Source: Candidatus Saccharimonadales bacterium (lineage in GTDB: Bacteria > Patescibacteriota > Saccharimonadia > Saccharimonadales > UBA10212). From it: a stretch of DNA of 64,000 bases. A program made the translations under genes and the position numbers. Below, one piece after another: positions 108-48,582 of the stretch (position 1 is its first letter; the number at the start of each line of letters is the position of its first letter). Below the pieces are notes generated by a model. That model was given only the letters and a program-made list of their open reading frames with translations, searched no databases and was not told the origin of the DNA. The DNA lies in contig JBEKOJ010000001.1 in assembly GCA_049521895.1 (NCBI GenBank), positions 354,717 to 418,716 of the forward strand, written 5' to 3'.

Positions 108-1331
108 GTGTATGATAAAAACATAAGAGGAATTTACGGATTGCGCCAAAAGTTAAGACTCGGGTGGTTGCTGGCGGTGATAGTGCTGGCGGTAATTGGT
201 TTGGTGATTTTTGACTATACCCGACCCCTACCACTAATACGCCCGCAAGCCCAGACACCTAGCCCGATAGCCGCCCAAGCTATTGACTTACCGTGGCCAA
301 CTGGCGGACAAGCAGCTATTGGCGCCGTTGGTTTTGGGGTACTGGCTACAAACCACACCGAGCAAGCTATACCAATGGCCAGCGTAGCTAAAATCATTAC
401 CGCGCTGGCTGTGCTTAAACAAAAGCCCCTGGAGCTGGGCCAGCAAGGACCGACGATTACTTTCGATAGCACGGATGTATCTTATTACCAAACTTATGCT
501 GCCGAGGGCGGTTCTGTGGCAAAAGTTGTCATCGGCGAAAATATCAGTGAATATCAAGTGCTCCAGACCATGCTGCTACCCTCAGCCAATAACATCGCTG
601 AGAGTTTGGCGCGCTGGGCTTTTGGCTCGCCTAACGCCTACATTGCCTACGTCAACCAGTTCGTAAAAACTCTGGGCATGACCCAGACAAACGTGGCCGA
701 TGCCAGCGGTTTTGTATCGCAAACCACCAGCACAGCCAAGGACTTGGTGATCTTGGGCGAGGCGGCAATGAATAATTCTGTTTTAGCGCAAATCGTCGGC
801 CAGAGCCAAGCCACGGTGCCGGTTGCCGGGACGGTTGATAATACAAATTGGTTGCTGGGCAGCGACGGTTTTGTGGGCATTAAAACCGGCAATACCGACC
901 AAGATCCCGGCTGTTATTTGTTTGCTGTTAGCCAGATATTTGGTGGCCAGCCGCTGTATATAGTTGGAGCGGTTATGGGCATGCCCACACTCACAGATGC
1001 GATAAGCAATGGGCGCACTTTGGCTGATGCCGCCAAAACAAGTTTTAGCAACCCGACTATTGTAAAAGCTGGCCAAATAATCGGTGCATACAAATTGCCC
1101 TGGGGCGGCAGTATACAAGCTGTGGCCCAAAAAGATTTAGCGGTTGTTACTTGGAAAGGCGTACAAATAACACCTATAGTGAGTTTGAATCCACTGCATG
1201 CATCAGCCGCGGCTGGAATGCAAATTGGTACTTTGAGCGCAGCTTCTGGCCAAGAAACAGTTAGCGTACCGGTGGTCATTAAGCAGGCTGTTCCTAAACC
1301 TCCCCTTCTCTGGCGCCTATTCCGTCTATAA
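108..1331 (+). CDS. serine-type D-Ala-D-Ala carboxypeptidase (peptidase S11, PBP5-like)
   Basis: 407-aa ORF with GTG start and N-terminal membrane anchor; SxxK (SVAK), SxN (SAN) and KTG (KTGN) motifs in canonical order. Confidence 0.85.
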   Translation: MYDKNIRGIYGLRQKLRLGWLLAVIVLAVIGLVIFDYTRPLPLIRPQAQTPSPIAAQAIDLPWPTGGQAAIGAVGFGVLATNHTEQAIPMASVAKIITALAVLKQKPLELGQQGPTITFDSTDVSYYQTYAAEGGSVAKVVIGENISEYQVLQTMLLPSANNIAESLARWAFGSPNAYIAYVNQFVKTLGMTQTNVADASGFVSQTTSTAKDLVILGEAAMNNSVLAQIVGQSQATVPVAGTVDNTNWLLGSDGFVGIKTGNTDQDPGCYLFAVSQIFGGQPLYIVGAVMGMPTLTDAISNGRTLADAAKTSFSNPTIVKAGQIIGAYKLPWGGSIQAVAQKDLAVVTWKGVQITPIVSLNPLHASAAAGMQIGTLSAASGQETVSVPVVIKQAVPKPPLLWRLFRL

Positions 1332-1350
1332 TACTTGACTTGTTAAGTAT
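1330..1350 (+). promoter_or_regulatory. palindromic box AATACTTGACTTGTTAAGTAT, identical to the box upstream of marR
   Basis: 21/21 nt identical to reverse complement of 47755-47775; 9-2-9 inverted repeat ATACTTGAC-TT-GTTAAGTAT; overlaps the stop codon of the preceding CDS. Confidence 0.55.
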
Positions 1351-1367: not shown

Positions 1368-1376
1368 TGTTAGAAT
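1368..1376 (+). promoter_or_regulatory. extended -10 element TGTTAGAAT (candidate promoter of the leader/tRNA-Leu transcript)
   Basis: TGnTAGAAT about 135 nt upstream of the tRNA; no convincing -35. Confidence 0.35.
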
Positions 1377-1509: not shown

Positions 1510-1596
1510 GGGCGAATGGCGGAATTGGTAGACGCGCTAGCTTCAGGAGCTAGTGTTCGCAAGAACGTGGAGGTTCAAGTCCTCTTTCGCCCACCA
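1510..1596 (+). tRNA. tRNA-Leu (anticodon CAG)
   Basis: Acceptor GGGCGAA/TTCGCCC, anticodon loop TTCAGGA, long variable arm, T-loop TTCAAGT, encoded CCA. Confidence 0.85.
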
Positions 1597-21495: not shown

Positions 21496-21783
21496 ATGCT
21501 TAATGATCTAATCTTCTTGGGGCAAATCCCCGGAACCAATTTTCAGATAACTTTTACCGACATCGTGGACATATCTCTACTCAGCCTGGCTCTACTTCTT
21601 TGCGGCTACCTTTATTATCTGGAGTTGAAAGCAGCGTGGGACAGGAAATTCTCCGAGAAGTTGCAGAACCAGCGTTTTATTCTGCCGGTACAAGCGATTG
21701 GCCATATAAGTTTAGCTCTTCCAGCAAATAACGATCCTGTTCAGCTAGACCTGTTTGTTTTTCCAATTCCCCAAGACGCTTAA
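21496..21783 (+). CDS. small hypothetical membrane protein
   Basis: Has its own promoter and a weak SD (TGGAG); one TM helix; the 3' third overlaps the convergent sbcB end, so the true stop and extent are uncertain. Confidence 0.4.
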   Translation: MLNDLIFLGQIPGTNFQITFTDIVDISLLSLALLLCGYLYYLELKAAWDRKFSEKLQNQRFILPVQAIGHISLALPANNDPVQLDLFVFPIPQDA

Positions 21784-23266
21784 AGAAATGGGCGGCGCGG
21801 CTAGCCCCACCGCCTTCCATCAGACGCTGGCGGCGGAATTTTTCCCATTGTTCTTGCTCGCCGGGGCTGAGTGATTTGGGATAATTACGGGCTTTATATA
21901 GCGGTAGCAACAGTTTTAGCCTCTCATCAGCAAAATCCAGCTGAAGATCAGCCAGCTTTTCCGCGTCCGCGGCCCGGACTACGCGCATTCTGGTTCTATC
22001 AGTATCATTAATGAAACCATCGTAGAGCTGTTCGTCGACTTTCTGCGGGTCGGCAATTATCCCGGCTTGGACTTTGGGCCAGATAATTTCGGCGGCGGCT
22101 ACCAGTTTGTCGCCAAAATCCTCAGCCTTTAGCAGCTTGGCCAGATTGGTATCAACTTCGGCGCTGTTAATTTTCAGCCGGCTAGCGCTTTTGGCGTCCA
22201 AAACTGACAACGGGGCAATAGTTGGGCATCTGTTATAAGACAGGACCTTTACAGGAAAATACGGCTCCGCAACACGCACTGCGCCAACCTGCTTACTGGC
22301 AGAGCCAGTAACTCTGCTGGCGCTTGCGGCGGATTGCGATGTTGCCGGCTGTGACTGCTCCTTCGCAGTACCATTACTGTACAGCTCAGTCCGCTGCTCG
22401 CCGGCGCCTTGCACTCCACTCGCCTGCGTGCTGCTGGAAGACCGATATTGCCATGCTGCCGCGAGCTCTGTCGGAGACATTGACAAAAACGGGGTAGGGT
22501 CAATGCGCAAATCATATACCAGGGCAGCATTTTTGCTGGGGTCTGGCGCAACCATTACCGCTATGGTAGTTTTTTCGTATTCAGCCGGGTAGCGTCCGCT
22601 GGTATAGATAAAGGGTCTGCCCGTGGCGACCAGTGCGGCGATTTTATTTTTGTCGCGCAGTTTGAGTAGATAATTAAACAGTTTTGGCTGCTTGGTTTTT
22701 ACCAGATTGGCCAGCGCAATTACGGCTTTAACATCGCTTAGGGCGTTGTGGGCGTTAGCGTGCTCCAGTTTATTAATCTGACTGATATCTTCCAAGCGGT
22801 TACTGGCTTTGCCATCAGGGGCAAATGGCCATTTTATACCTTCCGGCCTGAGCGCCCGCGTCATACGTACCACGTCAAGCAGATCCCACTTGCCACGGCT
22901 ATCTTTCCATTGCCACTCGTAAGCATCCACGAAGTTGCGCCAGAGTGTGAAGCGTATAAATTCATCGTCAAAACGGATATTATTATAACCAGCAGCGATG
23001 GTATCCGGCGTAAATACTTGACGTGTTAAGTATTTTGTAAACTCAGCTTCGGTGACCCCTTCGGTGATTGTCTGTTGCGGAGTAATACCATGCACCATCA
23101 CGGCGTCCGGTTCCGGCAAAATATCGGATGTCATCTTAACTAGCGTGTTATCAGGCTCGCCTACTGGTTTAAGGTTCATGTCAGTTCGTTGCCCGGCAAA
23201 CTGCATGATACGTGCCAAGCGAGGGTTGAAGCCGCTGGTTTCCAGATCATAAAAATAAAAAGTCAT
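21677..23266 (-). CDS. sbcB: exodeoxyribonuclease I
   Basis: N-terminal DEDDh motif (FYFYDLETSG) with ExoI-like architecture; contains an S/T/A/Q low-complexity insertion. Confidence 0.8.
   Translation of the reverse strand: MTFYFYDLETSGFNPRLARIMQFAGQRTDMNLKPVGEPDNTLVKMTSDILPEPDAVMVHGITPQQTITEGVTEAEFTKYLTRQVFTPDTIAAGYNNIRFDDEFIRFTLWRNFVDAYEWQWKDSRGKWDLLDVVRMTRALRPEGIKWPFAPDGKASNRLEDISQINKLEHANAHNALSDVKAVIALANLVKTKQPKLFNYLLKLRDKNKIAALVATGRPFIYTSGRYPAEYEKTTIAVMVAPDPSKNAALVYDLRIDPTPFLSMSPTELAAAWQYRSSSSTQASGVQGAGEQRTELYSNGTAKEQSQPATSQSAASASRVTGSASKQVGAVRVAEPYFPVKVLSYNRCPTIAPLSVLDAKSASRLKINSAEVDTNLAKLLKAEDFGDKLVAAAEIIWPKVQAGIIADPQKVDEQLYDGFINDTDRTRMRVVRAADAEKLADLQLDFADERLKLLLPLYKARNYPKSLSPGEQEQWEKFRRQRLMEGGGASRAAHFFKRLGELEKQTGLAEQDRYLLEELNLYGQSLVPAE
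23013..23033 (+). promoter_or_regulatory. intragenic copy of the marR-type palindromic box
   Basis: AATACTTGACGTGTTAAGTAT(TTT), 24/25 identical to 1330-1354; lies antisense inside sbcB. Confidence 0.45.
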
Positions 23267-40151: not shown

Positions 40152-41300
40152 CTATCTGTTATTAGAAAGCACCAGACTGATTAATCTCAGGGTCTTTCCC
40201 AGATCGCGTATGGTAGTCGGGCGGCCGAAGCTGAAGCGCAGGCTAGCACGTGCTAACTCATCGCTCAGGCCTATGGCTTTAAGTACATGCGAGGCTTCGC
40301 TTTGACTGGCGCTGCAGGCGCTGCCCACAGCAACTTGCACGCCACGCTCATCCAGTTCCATCATTAGCCGTTCGTTATCGATGCCCGGGAAAGTAACGTT
40401 AACAATATGCGGCGATTGGTGTTTGTCCGAGCCATTAATTATGGTTTTAGGGAGTTGCTGCTGTAGCCGCCCCACAAAAAACTTACGCAGACCTTCAAGC
40501 TTTTCTACTTCTTCGTGCCGCTGTTTTTGGGCGATGTCCAGAGCTTTGGCCAGACCCACGGCGCCAGCGACATTTTCGGTGCCACTGCGCAGGCCATACT
40601 CTTGTCCGCCTCCCAGTATCTGGGGCTTTAATTTAACGGCGGAGTGTACATAAAGTGCACCGGTTTGCTTAGGGCCATAAATTTTACCGCCATTAACAGT
40701 TAGTAGATCAACGCCCAAACGGGTAGTTTGGAGACCCAGATAGCTTGGTGCCTGGGCAGCGTCGGTATGAAGATAAAGCGGTAATTTATTACCAGCCAGG
40801 CGTCGTGAATTGCTTAACTTGTTAAGTATTTGTGAAATTTTTCTTAGTGGTTGGATGGTTCCTAGCTCATTGTTAATCAGCATTACGCTGACTAGTACAG
40901 TTTTGTCGGTGAGCATTTTTTGCAATTTAGCGGTATCAACCATGCCCTGCGGTGTTACTGGTATCTGCCTACTATTGAATTGTCCGGCCGGCGCCAGGAC
41001 TGATTCGTGCTCAATAGAACTAACTAACAGTTCGCTGTCCGGGTAGCGGCGCATCACTCCATTTACCGCCAAGTTGTTAGCCTCGGTGGCTCCGGCAGTA
41101 AAGATAACCTCGCCAGGCCTAGCTCCTAAATTCCGGGCTACGCTAGCCCGGGCTTTATCAAGGTCCTTTCGCGCCGCCCGCCCGGCTAGATAGGTAGCCG
41201 ACGGGTTATGAAAATTCTGACTAAAATAAGGCTGCATCGCCCGTAATACCCGTGGGTCAAGCGGTGTGGCGGCGGCATAATCCAGATAGATGCTTCTCAT
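40152..41300 (-). CDS. cysteine desulfurase (class V aminotransferase, NifS/IscS-like)
   Basis: 382 aa with a class V fold pattern and a C-terminal active-site region GSACSAS. Confidence 0.8.
   Translation of the reverse strand: MRSIYLDYAAATPLDPRVLRAMQPYFSQNFHNPSATYLAGRAARKDLDKARASVARNLGARPGEVIFTAGATEANNLAVNGVMRRYPDSELLVSSIEHESVLAPAGQFNSRQIPVTPQGMVDTAKLQKMLTDKTVLVSVMLINNELGTIQPLRKISQILNKLSNSRRLAGNKLPLYLHTDAAQAPSYLGLQTTRLGVDLLTVNGGKIYGPKQTGALYVHSAVKLKPQILGGGQEYGLRSGTENVAGAVGLAKALDIAQKQRHEEVEKLEGLRKFFVGRLQQQLPKTIINGSDKHQSPHIVNVTFPGIDNERLMMELDERGVQVAVGSACSASQSEASHVLKAIGLSDELARASLRFSFGRPTTIRDLGKTLRLISLVLSNNR
40809..40829 (+). promoter_or_regulatory. intragenic partial copy of the marR-type box
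   Basis: AATTGCTTAACTTGTTAAGTAT(TT); the right half-site is perfect; lies antisense inside the desulfurase gene. Confidence 0.35.
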
Positions 41301-46684: not shown

Positions 46685-47091
46685 TGGTGGAGCTGGTGGG
46701 CACTACCCCCACGTCCGATTGGTAACTAACCCAGGTGACTACAAGCTTAGATCGCTTGAAATTTCTTAAGCCAAACTATAGAAACGATCCAAAACAGTCC
46801 GGCTAAAGTCCATTAAACTTAATAAGCTGCGGGCGGACCACCCAGCTGCTTACGCGATCAGATAATATGGCGCCATGTCGTTTTATCTGATGTCAAACGA
46901 TTGACGGTAGCCTATTAAATTAGGCTACGTTGAGAGCAAAGCTGCGGGGAGCGAACAAGTTCGCGACCGCCTCAAATGCCCTAGAGATAGAGTTTTTGAC
47001 AGCTATCTTGTTTGATCCGGCTAACGTGCAGATCAATCCGGCCTGCCACCTGAATTGTTAAAGTCCATTCGTCGAGCTTAAATTCAGCCCC
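46685..47091 (-). ncRNA. ssrA: transfer-messenger RNA
   Basis: 5' GGGGCUGAAUUUAAGCUCGACG pairs with 3' CAGCUCC-A-CCA (G3-U pair as in tRNA-Ala); T-arm-like GUGGG-GGUAGUG-CCCAC; internal tag-like frame ending ...FALNVA-TAA (tag start not determined). Confidence 0.85.
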
Positions 47092-47305: not shown

Positions 47306-47734
47306 CTAGTGGTGGGAGAGTTTTTGGGCAGCGAATTCCAAGGCATCGGCTTCGCCCTTGTTGAGAGCCCTCAAGAACTTGCTTTGCTGGGACCTTAGAG
47401 CTTTTTCAGCCTTCTGATAGGTATGGTTGCCCTTGGTGGTTAGAATAACGTCGCGTTGCCGGCCGTCTTTTTTGTTCTTAGTAATGCTAACTAGCCCGTG
47501 CCTTTTCATCTCTTTGAGCTGGCGGCTGATATTGGCCTCGGTTTGGTTGAGCTCGGCTGCTAGATGCCGCTGCGATCGGGCGACAGATGAACTGAGGCCG
47601 CTCATTATTCGCGCCTGGCTTAGTCCTACTCCCGCCTTGGCCAAGAGAAGTTCTTCAGCCAGATGTTGTAAATTATACGTAAAGTGGAGCAGGGGAGGAA
47701 ATTTTGATTTTATGGTTGGCAAATTATTTTTCAT
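47306..47734 (-). CDS. MarR-family transcriptional regulator
   Basis: 142 aa with a winged-HTH pattern (SQRHLAAELNQTEANISRQLKEMKRHGLV). Confidence 0.8.
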   Translation of the reverse strand: MKNNLPTIKSKFPPLLHFTYNLQHLAEELLLAKAGVGLSQARIMSGLSSSVARSQRHLAAELNQTEANISRQLKEMKRHGLVSITKNKKDGRQRDVILTTKGNHTYQKAEKALRSQQSKFLRALNKGEADALEFAAQKLSHH

Positions 47735-47754
47735 ACTTAAAGCTTAAGGCTAAG

Positions 47755-47775
47755 ATACTTAACAAGTCAAGTATT
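47755..47775 (-). promoter_or_regulatory. palindromic box (candidate MarR operator) 20 nt upstream of the marR start
   Basis: Sense: AATACTTGACTTGTTAAGTAT; the half-sites ATACTTGAC / GTTAAGTAT form a 9-2-9 inverted repeat with one mismatch. Confidence 0.55.
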
Positions 47776-47793
47776 TTATGGTTGGGGCAGGGG

Positions 47794-48582
47794 TTAAATT
47801 ATTTTTTGGGCTATAGCCTTATTGTAAATAGAATGCCAGTCCTGTAATTTGAGGTTTTGGGCACGCAAATTACCATCAATACCGGCCTTTTTGAGCAGAT
47901 TGTCTACTTCTTCTTTGCTGATATGCAGACCAGCACTCAAAGAGCTGCGTAGTTTTTTGCGACGGGCTGAAAAGCCGGCCTTAACCAGACGGAAAAATCT
48001 TTTAGTATCCAAAGTATTAAATAGCGGTTTGGCGTGGCGTTTTAGCACTACCACCCGCGAGTCCACTTTTGGCGCTGGGTTAAAAAGCTTCCTTGGTACG
48101 ACTATTCCTAGCTCCACCCGGTAGTAGAGCTGGATGCTGACGGCCAGCAGGCTCATCTGCCCTGGCCTGGCGCAAATCCGTTGCGCCACTTCTTTTTGTA
48201 CCAGCAACACCATCAGCTTTGGCGGGTTTAATGACTCACTCAAACGGCGCAGCAGATTGCTTGTTAAATAATAGGGGATATTGGCTACTACTTTATATCC
48301 AGCCAGTAAATTACCCAGGTCAAAGTGCATGATATTTGCTTGGACCACTTGTAAGTTGCGCGCCGGTACCCGATTTGGCAGCGCGGCAGCTAGTTCTTCG
48401 TCCAGCTCGACAGCGATAACATGGCGAGCTTGTTTTACTAGACGGTGCGTTAGACTACCTAAGCCCGGGCCGATTTCTAAAACCGTGTCGCTGGGTTGTA
48501 ATTCGGCGAATTCAGTAATTGCTTCTAGTGCCTCAACATCCGTTAGCCAATGCTGTCCCAAAGATTTTTTAGCGGTAGCCAT
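47794..48582 (-). CDS. rsmA: 16S rRNA (adenine1518/1519-N6)-dimethyltransferase
   Basis: KSLGQHWL N-terminus; SAM motif LEIGPGLGSLT; NIPYYLTS. Confidence 0.9.
   Translation of the reverse strand: MATAKKSLGQHWLTDVEALEAITEFAELQPSDTVLEIGPGLGSLTHRLVKQARHVIAVELDEELAAALPNRVPARNLQVVQANIMHFDLGNLLAGYKVVANIPYYLTSNLLRRLSESLNPPKLMVLLVQKEVAQRICARPGQMSLLAVSIQLYYRVELGIVVPRKLFNPAPKVDSRVVVLKRHAKPLFNTLDTKRFFRLVKAGFSARRKKLRSSLSAGLHISKEEVDNLLKKAGIDGNLRAQNLKLQDWHSIYNKAIAQKII

Follow-up and report, generated by a model that had tools for sequence, protein, structure and literature searches.

We found that the palindromic box upstream of the marR gene in the stretch of DNA analyzed here (64 kb in length, hereafter referred to as the window) is probably the operator of the adjacent MarR regulator, which would both control its own gene and recognize a set of boxes dispersed through the genome. 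The original prediction of an autoregulatory MarR operator placed over the -35 element is strongly supported by comparison among relatives, as the box accompanies marR in every relative that could be evaluated and is followed by a matching predicted -10 element. Co-occurrence of box and gene, the promoter geometry and the preserved recognition helix together represent a strong phylogenetic footprint, which points to a MarR dimer sitting on its own promoter. As a literature search found no description of either the motif or the regulator, the pair is apparently an undescribed example of a textbook MarR autoregulatory operator. The coordinates of all features are collected in Table 1.

Table 1. 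Boxes, predicted promoter elements and genes in the window, with the evidence for each
Feature	Coordinates	Strand	Evidence
Twin box, identical 21-mer, over the PBP stop codon; lineage-specific	1330-1350	+	Exact match; 5 same-species contigs
Extended -10 promoter TGTTAGAAT of the tRNA-Leu(CAG) unit	1368-1376	+	Sequence; predicted start ~1383
tRNA-Leu(CAG)	1510-1596	+	ARAGORN and Rfam; 160 nt downstream of twin box
Box copy in sbcB (exonuclease I, ORF 21677-23266, - strand)	23013-23033		1 mismatch, in the central dinucleotide; Pfam
Degenerate box in class-V aminotransferase gene (40152-41300, - strand)	40809-40829		3 mismatches to the 21-mer, 2 to the degenerate consensus
tmRNA gene (ssrA)	46685-47091	-	Rfam, 87.5 bits; 215 nt downstream of marR, same strand
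marR gene, 142 aa, MarR-family winged helix	47306-47734	-	Pfam MarR_2 9e-9, MarR 4.5e-5
Predicted -10 element TAAGCT, 18 nt after the -35, with the ATG 6 nt on	47741-47746	-	Geometry common to marR loci
Palindromic box AATACTTGACTTGTTAAGTAT, putative MarR operator over the marR promoter	47755-47775	-	Exact match; 75/75 marR relatives
-35 hexamer TTGACT, upstream half of box	47765-47770	-	Sequence; TTGAC invariant in 64 unique marR loci
rsmA/ksgA (16S rRNA dimethylase), conserved upstream neighbor	47794-48582	-	Pfam RrnaAD 8.5e-59

The 21-mer AATACTTGACTTGTTAAGTAT was found as an exact match at both sites for which it had been claimed, i.e., on the marR coding strand and, as a twin, at the end of the PBP gene. 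The claim that such a match is very unlikely to arise by chance was upheld, with no matches in 100 dinucleotide-preserving shuffles of the window even when up to 3 mismatches were allowed. The 9-2-9 layout of the inverted repeat was likewise seen, but the palindrome is imperfect; 8 of the 9 positions of its arms (ATACTTGAC/GTTAAGTAT) can pair, with a G opposing a T at the remaining one. Moreover, while both sites are real, they do not form a private pair, as the window contains four copies of what is a dispersed family. The two copies that had escaped earlier notice are both located inside genes, one of them 233 nt from the sbcB start, where it encodes KYLTRQVF, and the other 471 nt from the start of the aminotransferase gene. 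An orthologue of this aminotransferase (L072, 66% identity) carries a perfect box at the identical position. Exactly four sites in the window match the degenerate pattern ATACTTRACNNGTYAAGTAT with at most 2 mismatches, and the next-best candidates have at least 4; that the window has only such high-quality sites favors the operator reading.

In a reverse test that was blind to the motif, metagenome contigs were scanned for MarR relatives and 80 loci encoding proteins with 43-78% identity to the window protein were kept, 75 of which had enough upstream sequence to be judged. The box was present directly upstream of marR, in the same position and orientation, in all 75 evaluable loci (55 exact, 18 with one mismatch, one with two and one with three mismatches). 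The possibility, raised along with the original prediction, of a motif scattered without any link to marR thus applies by half, because the box is indeed scattered yet very strongly linked to marR.

A scan of GTDB (one genome per species) with the pattern ATACTTRACNNGTYAAGTAT identified at least 117 loci, with per-genome counts representing lower bounds; among the 117 matches listed, 99 were labelled Saccharibacteria, Saccharimonadales or Patescibacteria. The extended consensus, aaATACTTRAC-NN-GTYAAGTATtt, shows a strong concentration in genomes of Saccharibacteria. Among the matches listed, the most frequent context, represented by at least 18 species, has the box 11-46 nt upstream of an ORF for a MarR-family protein of 126-167 aa and downstream of rsmA/ksgA. 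The same 18 specified bases occur across species whose MarR proteins share only ~26-30% identity. Boxes of the asymmetric G/T type occur frequently, and those at marR are asymmetric as a rule.

In Enterococcus hirae (L121), the 20-mer pattern also precedes a MarR gene; in two Firmicutes MAGs (L024/L104; Sporomusa/Bacillota) it is located 6-26 nt ahead of genes for MFS transporters, and in another Patescibacterium (L016) it adjoins a more divergent MarR. The operator type may be wider than the Saccharibacteria. A scan of viral contigs returned 7 matches on low-GC phage contigs without MarR, which is consistent with chance, and a further motif seen near boxes (GGCAGGGG) was traced to the 3' region of rsmA in the case of marR sites and, in recX, to proline codons.

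At the marR locus itself, the distance of 20 nt between the end of the box and the marR ATG (47734) was confirmed, as was the TTGACT -35-like hexamer within the box, which reads from 47770 to 47765. A TAnnnT element is located at a spacing of 17-18 nt from TTGAC in 59 of 64 unique marR loci, and in 37 of the 64 the ATG follows 6-7 nt beyond this element. This short spacing between the -10 element and the ATG (6 nt in the window) suggests a leaderless marR mRNA, and we regard the transcript start of marR as probably leaderless. Among the matches listed, this promoter geometry was present at 14 of 16 marR boxes as compared to 5 of 60 other intergenic and 2 of 42 intragenic boxes; it is thus specific to marR boxes. 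The marR -10 element is weak by consensus, and a scan for consensus promoters and terminators missed the marR promoter. Overall, the box is a palindromic site that overlaps the predicted promoter of the regulator's own gene.

Two other sequence features were noted around this promoter. A C-rich tract (CCCCTGCCCC, 47779-47793, - strand) is located directly after the rsmA stop codon and upstream of the marR box, and most of the 64 unique marR loci are rich in C from -14 to -4 as counted from the box; in some species the tract may be the 3' coding end of rsmA. In addition, a third half-site-like sequence (TTTAAGTATG, 47732-47743, - strand) covers the marR start codon in the window and is not conserved in other species.

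The product of marR, the sole MarR gene in the 64-kb window, contains a MarR-type winged helix-turn-helix domain and is a bona fide MarR protein (Pfam MarR_2 score of 35.8 bits, with a cut-off of 27). When a profile of 15 MarR proteins from box-flanking loci (alignment A1) was compared to the PDB, solved MarR proteins were matched over nearly their full length (3nrv, 3.6e-19; MepR, ~2e-15). In the same alignment the predicted recognition helix, GQTEA[SN][IV]SRQ[LIVM]K, is near invariant; the two protein sub-families it comprises are only 26-30% identical. The window protein lacks cysteine as well as conserved metal ligands, and it ends in SHH. Members of the second sub-family (e.g., L110, L053 and L094) have a C-terminal tail, C-x5-7-C-D-H-P, which is absent from the window's sub-family and might be a metal or redox sensor.

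The rsmA/ksgA stop codon is located 19 nt before the box, and ksgA-box-marR synteny is found in many species. Neighbors of marR include rsmA, a gene for a G5-domain protein, uvrD, ssrA and bacA, and the marR locus recurs in several metagenomes, where it is found on contigs of up to 745 kb. Adjacency of marR and ssrA, in either orientation, was observed in 13 of 18 related loci; ARAGORN misses the tmRNA at the window locus and at most of the related loci. Two loci (L170 and L172) carry a second box within the gap between convergent marR and ssrA genes.

We propose that a MarR dimer binds the extended consensus as a 20-24 bp palindrome with half-sites ~11 bp apart, and that the upstream half-site doubles as the -35 element (TTGACT) of a sigma-70-type promoter, with the -10 element TAAGCT 18 nt downstream and marR transcription starting at or beside the ATG. 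A dimer on the box would occlude RNA polymerase and thereby cause negative autoregulation of marR. The same MarR would also recognize the dispersed identical boxes, which occur about once per 16-100 kb and include the copy at 1330-1350. Binding and repression by MarR, like the positions at which transcription starts and any influence on tRNA-Leu, are what we infer from these sequence comparisons.

The density of boxes is 4 per 64 kb in the window and, with relaxed matching, approx. 1 per 34-50 kb at other loci; exact matches on long contigs occur approx. once per 100 kb. Cumulative GC skew (window positions 1-30000) peaks at ~10-28 kb, and genes are on the + strand to the left of ~4.8 kb and on the - strand to the right, a pattern as expected at a replication terminus, which could relate to the slightly high local box density. 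Multiple dispersed copies, two of which (those in intergenic DNA of the window) share all 21 nt, together with the resemblance of the twin to an insertion of ~26 nt at a stop codon as compared to the closest relatives, would also fit a mobile or repeat element (REP/MITE-like) or a DNA uptake sequence without any link to MarR. We consider this explanation scarcely plausible, since the 18 specified bases are kept across species with MarR proteins that are ~26-30% identical, unlike species-specific REPs, and since marR and box are associated in 75 of 75 loci. The sbcB copy, moreover, arose without an indel, and the uniformity of the twin in five samples of the same species argues against recent mobility. 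Assignment to the REP/MITE-like class was rejected on finding the same sequence in many species and ~40% of the copies (among the matches listed) inside genes. DNA uptake sequences occur roughly once per kb; one box per 16-100 kb is far below that density.

The operator reading was also weighed against the proposal that the box acts as a nucleic-acid hairpin, i.e., as a bidirectional terminator or an RNA-stability element, rather than as a protein site. The box is a palindrome preceded by an A-run and followed by a T-run and is often located at the 3' ends of genes, and symmetric half-site combinations are in modest excess (58/31/16 observed as compared to 51/44/9 expected). Moreover, in ~14% of copies among the matches listed the arms are extended by 5-10 further complementary bases whose sequence, outside the 20-mer, varies from locus to locus. 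We nevertheless regard a hairpin function as very improbable, as the sequence itself is conserved across species beyond mere pairing, as asymmetric G/T boxes are common (and the rule at marR) and as many copies lie within coding sequence. Predicted RNA folds of the four boxes are also weak (~-5 kcal/mol, with the degenerate copy reaching -0.8 kcal/mol), and no z-score is stronger than -2.3. The scan for terminators found no terminator-like site at either the marR or the twin locus, where the hairpin of ~-5 kcal/mol has 2 G-C pairs per arm.

The copies with extended arms include L046, L073, L101 (4749), L014, L060, L072 and L107; some of them are located inside genes, and their frequency is far above chance. 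Template-switch palindrome extension and insertion into pre-existing hairpins are both possibilities for their origin. At one locus (L122:701-750) the box is followed by a classical G+C-rich hairpin with a T-run (gcccccggtgagccgggggtatttt), and a box and an intrinsic terminator can therefore sit side by side.

The distribution of boxes relative to genes counts against the operator reading, as boxes inside genes, in convergent gaps and abutting stop codons are not where a classical repressor acts. Among the matches listed, ~40% of boxes are inside long ORFs, and they occur at recurrent positions, i.e., sbcB +233 (at least 5 species), recX ~+285, valS ~+1850-1970 and tyrS ~+945; gatB, tsaB, dus, apbE and nifS-like/aminotransferase genes also contain boxes. 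Recurring peptides (KYLTxQV and (E)ILNKLSI) are found in unrelated proteins because only two frames through the box avoid a stop codon. Among the intergenic non-marR boxes listed, 25 of the 52 that face a gene end are no more than 10 nt away from its stop codon, whereas convergent genes flank 10 of 52 (~19%). A perfect box occupies the sbcB position in 4 further species, and the third-codon identity in the five box-bearing species, a set that was ascertained by the motif, is 94% inside the box as compared to 42% in the flanks.

These observations could also be accommodated if the boxes were sites of a genome-wide DNA-organizing or roadblock/insulator system, formed by MarR or by another protein, with autoregulation as one facet. 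Intragenic positions conserved among orthologues of several species and the elevated third-codon identity within the motif-ascertained sbcB set favor such a system, as do the stop-facing boxes and those in convergent gaps, including the marR/ssrA gaps of L170 and L172. In the window, obg and sbcB overlap, and the first place for an operator that separates the two is therefore inside sbcB, where the box is found; in L073, the box is located in the obg-sbcB spacer and not inside sbcB. On the other hand, among ~75 SbcB homologues collected blind to the motif, the box peptide is kept in only ~11-17, all of them in the closest clade, and it has decayed in sister lineages; such sites therefore appear to be gained, kept for a while and lost. 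The non-marR boxes show no fixed spacing to downstream promoters or extended -10 elements, and no functional theme was found among box target genes. In addition, short intergenic regions alone could place boxes beside stop codons. Weighing both sides, we judge this alternative to be improbable.

A related proposal concerns MarR specifically, i.e., that it is a class-wide global DNA-binding protein which acts chiefly as a roadblock/insulator or nucleoid organizer and not as a ligand-released repressor of a single operon; this appears unlikely to us. It may include 15-40 high-affinity boxes per genome of ~0.8 Mb, selected within coding sequences and at stop codons. A roadblock, insulator or nucleoid role of the same MarR is, in our assessment, quite unlikely; such a role would account best for the boxes within genes and next to stop codons.

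The original prediction held that the twin box would tie a MarR regulator to a stable RNA transcription unit. As had been described, the twin overlaps the stop codon (TAA, 1329-1331) of a Peptidase_S11 (PBP) ORF that spans positions 108-1331, and it ends 17 nt before the extended -10 element TGTTAGAAT. The encoded PBP shows full identity to a protein of a MAG labelled "Candidatus Saccharimonadales bacterium"; the window belongs to a Candidatus Saccharimonadales genome. Relative to the predicted tRNA-Leu start, the twin is centered at ~-42.5 and spans from ~-52 to -33. Contigs of the window's species from different samples carried it in 5 of 5 cases, and it is thus fixed in that species. Conversely, even when 4 mismatches were allowed, it was absent from the orthologous PBP-tRNA-Leu(CAG)-FAD-oxidase junction of other lineages (L203-L206 and L212-L215). 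These relatives without the twin represent four to five lineages, with PBP identities of 70, 64, 55 and 51%. A TGnTAnAnT extended -10 element (TGTTAGACT, TGCTAAACT and TGCTAGAAT) is located within ~10 nt of the PBP stop codon in L203, L204 and L205, and the window has ~26 extra nt at the junction, box included, as compared to L203 and L204. In a fourth relative, the tRNA gene at the PBP junction is on the opposite strand.

As the extended -10 element is kept and the box is absent in relatives, the tRNA-Leu promoter is ancestral and the box a recent gain private to the species; the twin was gained between the PBP stop codon and the pre-existing extended -10 promoter of tRNA-Leu(CAG). The twin lacks a -10 element at the spacing seen at marR and is therefore not a copy of the marR promoter, and any regulatory effect would work differently. 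From its position, the twin could modulate the tRNA-Leu promoter or stop transcripts of the PBP gene from reading through. No box directly upstream of a tRNA was found among ~100 other Saccharibacteria boxes. Of the proposed tie to a stable RNA, the presence of the twin and its fixation in the species therefore stand, but it is absent in relatives and has no counterpart flanking another tRNA; a regulatory tie between MarR and the tRNA-Leu unit is possible, though unconserved. In one locus labelled only as "uncultured bacterium" (L021), a box precedes a tRNA-Ala by 84 nt.

The sequence between this promoter and the tRNA had been called an L1 leader. A cmscan search over positions 1250-1750 (E ≤ 5) yielded only the tRNA and noise, and Rfam at gathering thresholds identified no family for the leader or for the box either; the region at 1377-1509 has no Rfam match, and the label is therefore unsupported. 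A leader of ~130 nt (1377-1509, + strand) between the extended -10 element and tRNA-Leu(CAG) is conserved in two relatives (L203:3925-4103 and L204:4211-4348) and absent from a third (L205). It contains a CAAUUUU...AAAAUUG stem, a GAGAGGAGG tract and a long hairpin with 11 compensatory pairs, as judged from three sequences only.

Patescibacteria have tiny genomes and very few regulators, and how Saccharibacteria and other Patescibacteria regulate transcription is, to our knowledge, almost unknown. A class-wide pair of regulator and operator, with a defined promoter and a discrete set of boxes that can be scanned for, represents a concrete and testable entry point, and cultivated Saccharibacteria are now genetically tractable. 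How compact genomes regulate genes within operons may become apparent from the boxes that are conserved within genes and at stop codons. Were MarR a global DNA-binding protein, the boxes would act in genomes whose operons are long and in which intergenic DNA is nearly absent, e.g., by uncoupling sbcB from the essential upstream gene obg. Control of a tRNA by MarR, on the other hand, would be a feature private to one species and should not be generalized.

Among characterized MarR systems, the zinc-sensing proteins ZitR and AdcR experimentally bind a TTAACYRGTTAA operator that covers the -35 element in Pzit (PMC6372160). The core of the box, TTAAC-N2-GTTAA, has half-sites and spacing identical to this operator and is likewise placed over a -35 element (PMC6372160). 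The box differs in being longer (ATAC...GTAT and A/T flanks) and in its central pair, which is mostly TT, AA, AT or TA and not YR. Chains of ZitR and AdcR appeared in the PDB profile search from rank ~49 downward (E ~1e-7, as compared to 3.6e-19 for the best match), A1 has no invariant His, Cys or Glu column, and no zinc ABC transporter is located near the window marR. Similarity rank, the ligands missing among the invariant columns of A1 and the lack of linked zinc-uptake genes thus rule out membership in the AdcR/ZitR subgroup.

Regulators of the SlyA/RovA type bind TTAGCAAGCTAA sites, i.e., 5-2-5 palindromes, at many chromosomal targets. The box shares the 5-2-5 palindrome with these sites but differs in half-site sequence, and it is not known to occur in a context of H-NS counter-silencing; SlyA chains were among the PDB profile matches at ~1e-8.

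Like E. coli MarR/marO, S. aureus MepR and B. subtilis OhrR, the window marR encodes a small winged-helix protein, presumably a dimer, and, as with autoregulated MarR repressors, a 20-bp palindromic operator would cover the -35 element and spacer of its own promoter. Unlike in those three systems, no efflux or detoxification gene adjoins the window marR, whose neighbors are rsmA and ssrA, and many extra Saccharibacteria boxes are located within coding sequences or at stop codons. The Saccharibacteria system also differs from marO, MepR and OhrR in having a promoter that is probably leaderless, and in an operator and recognition helix that are conserved across a whole candidate-phylum class.
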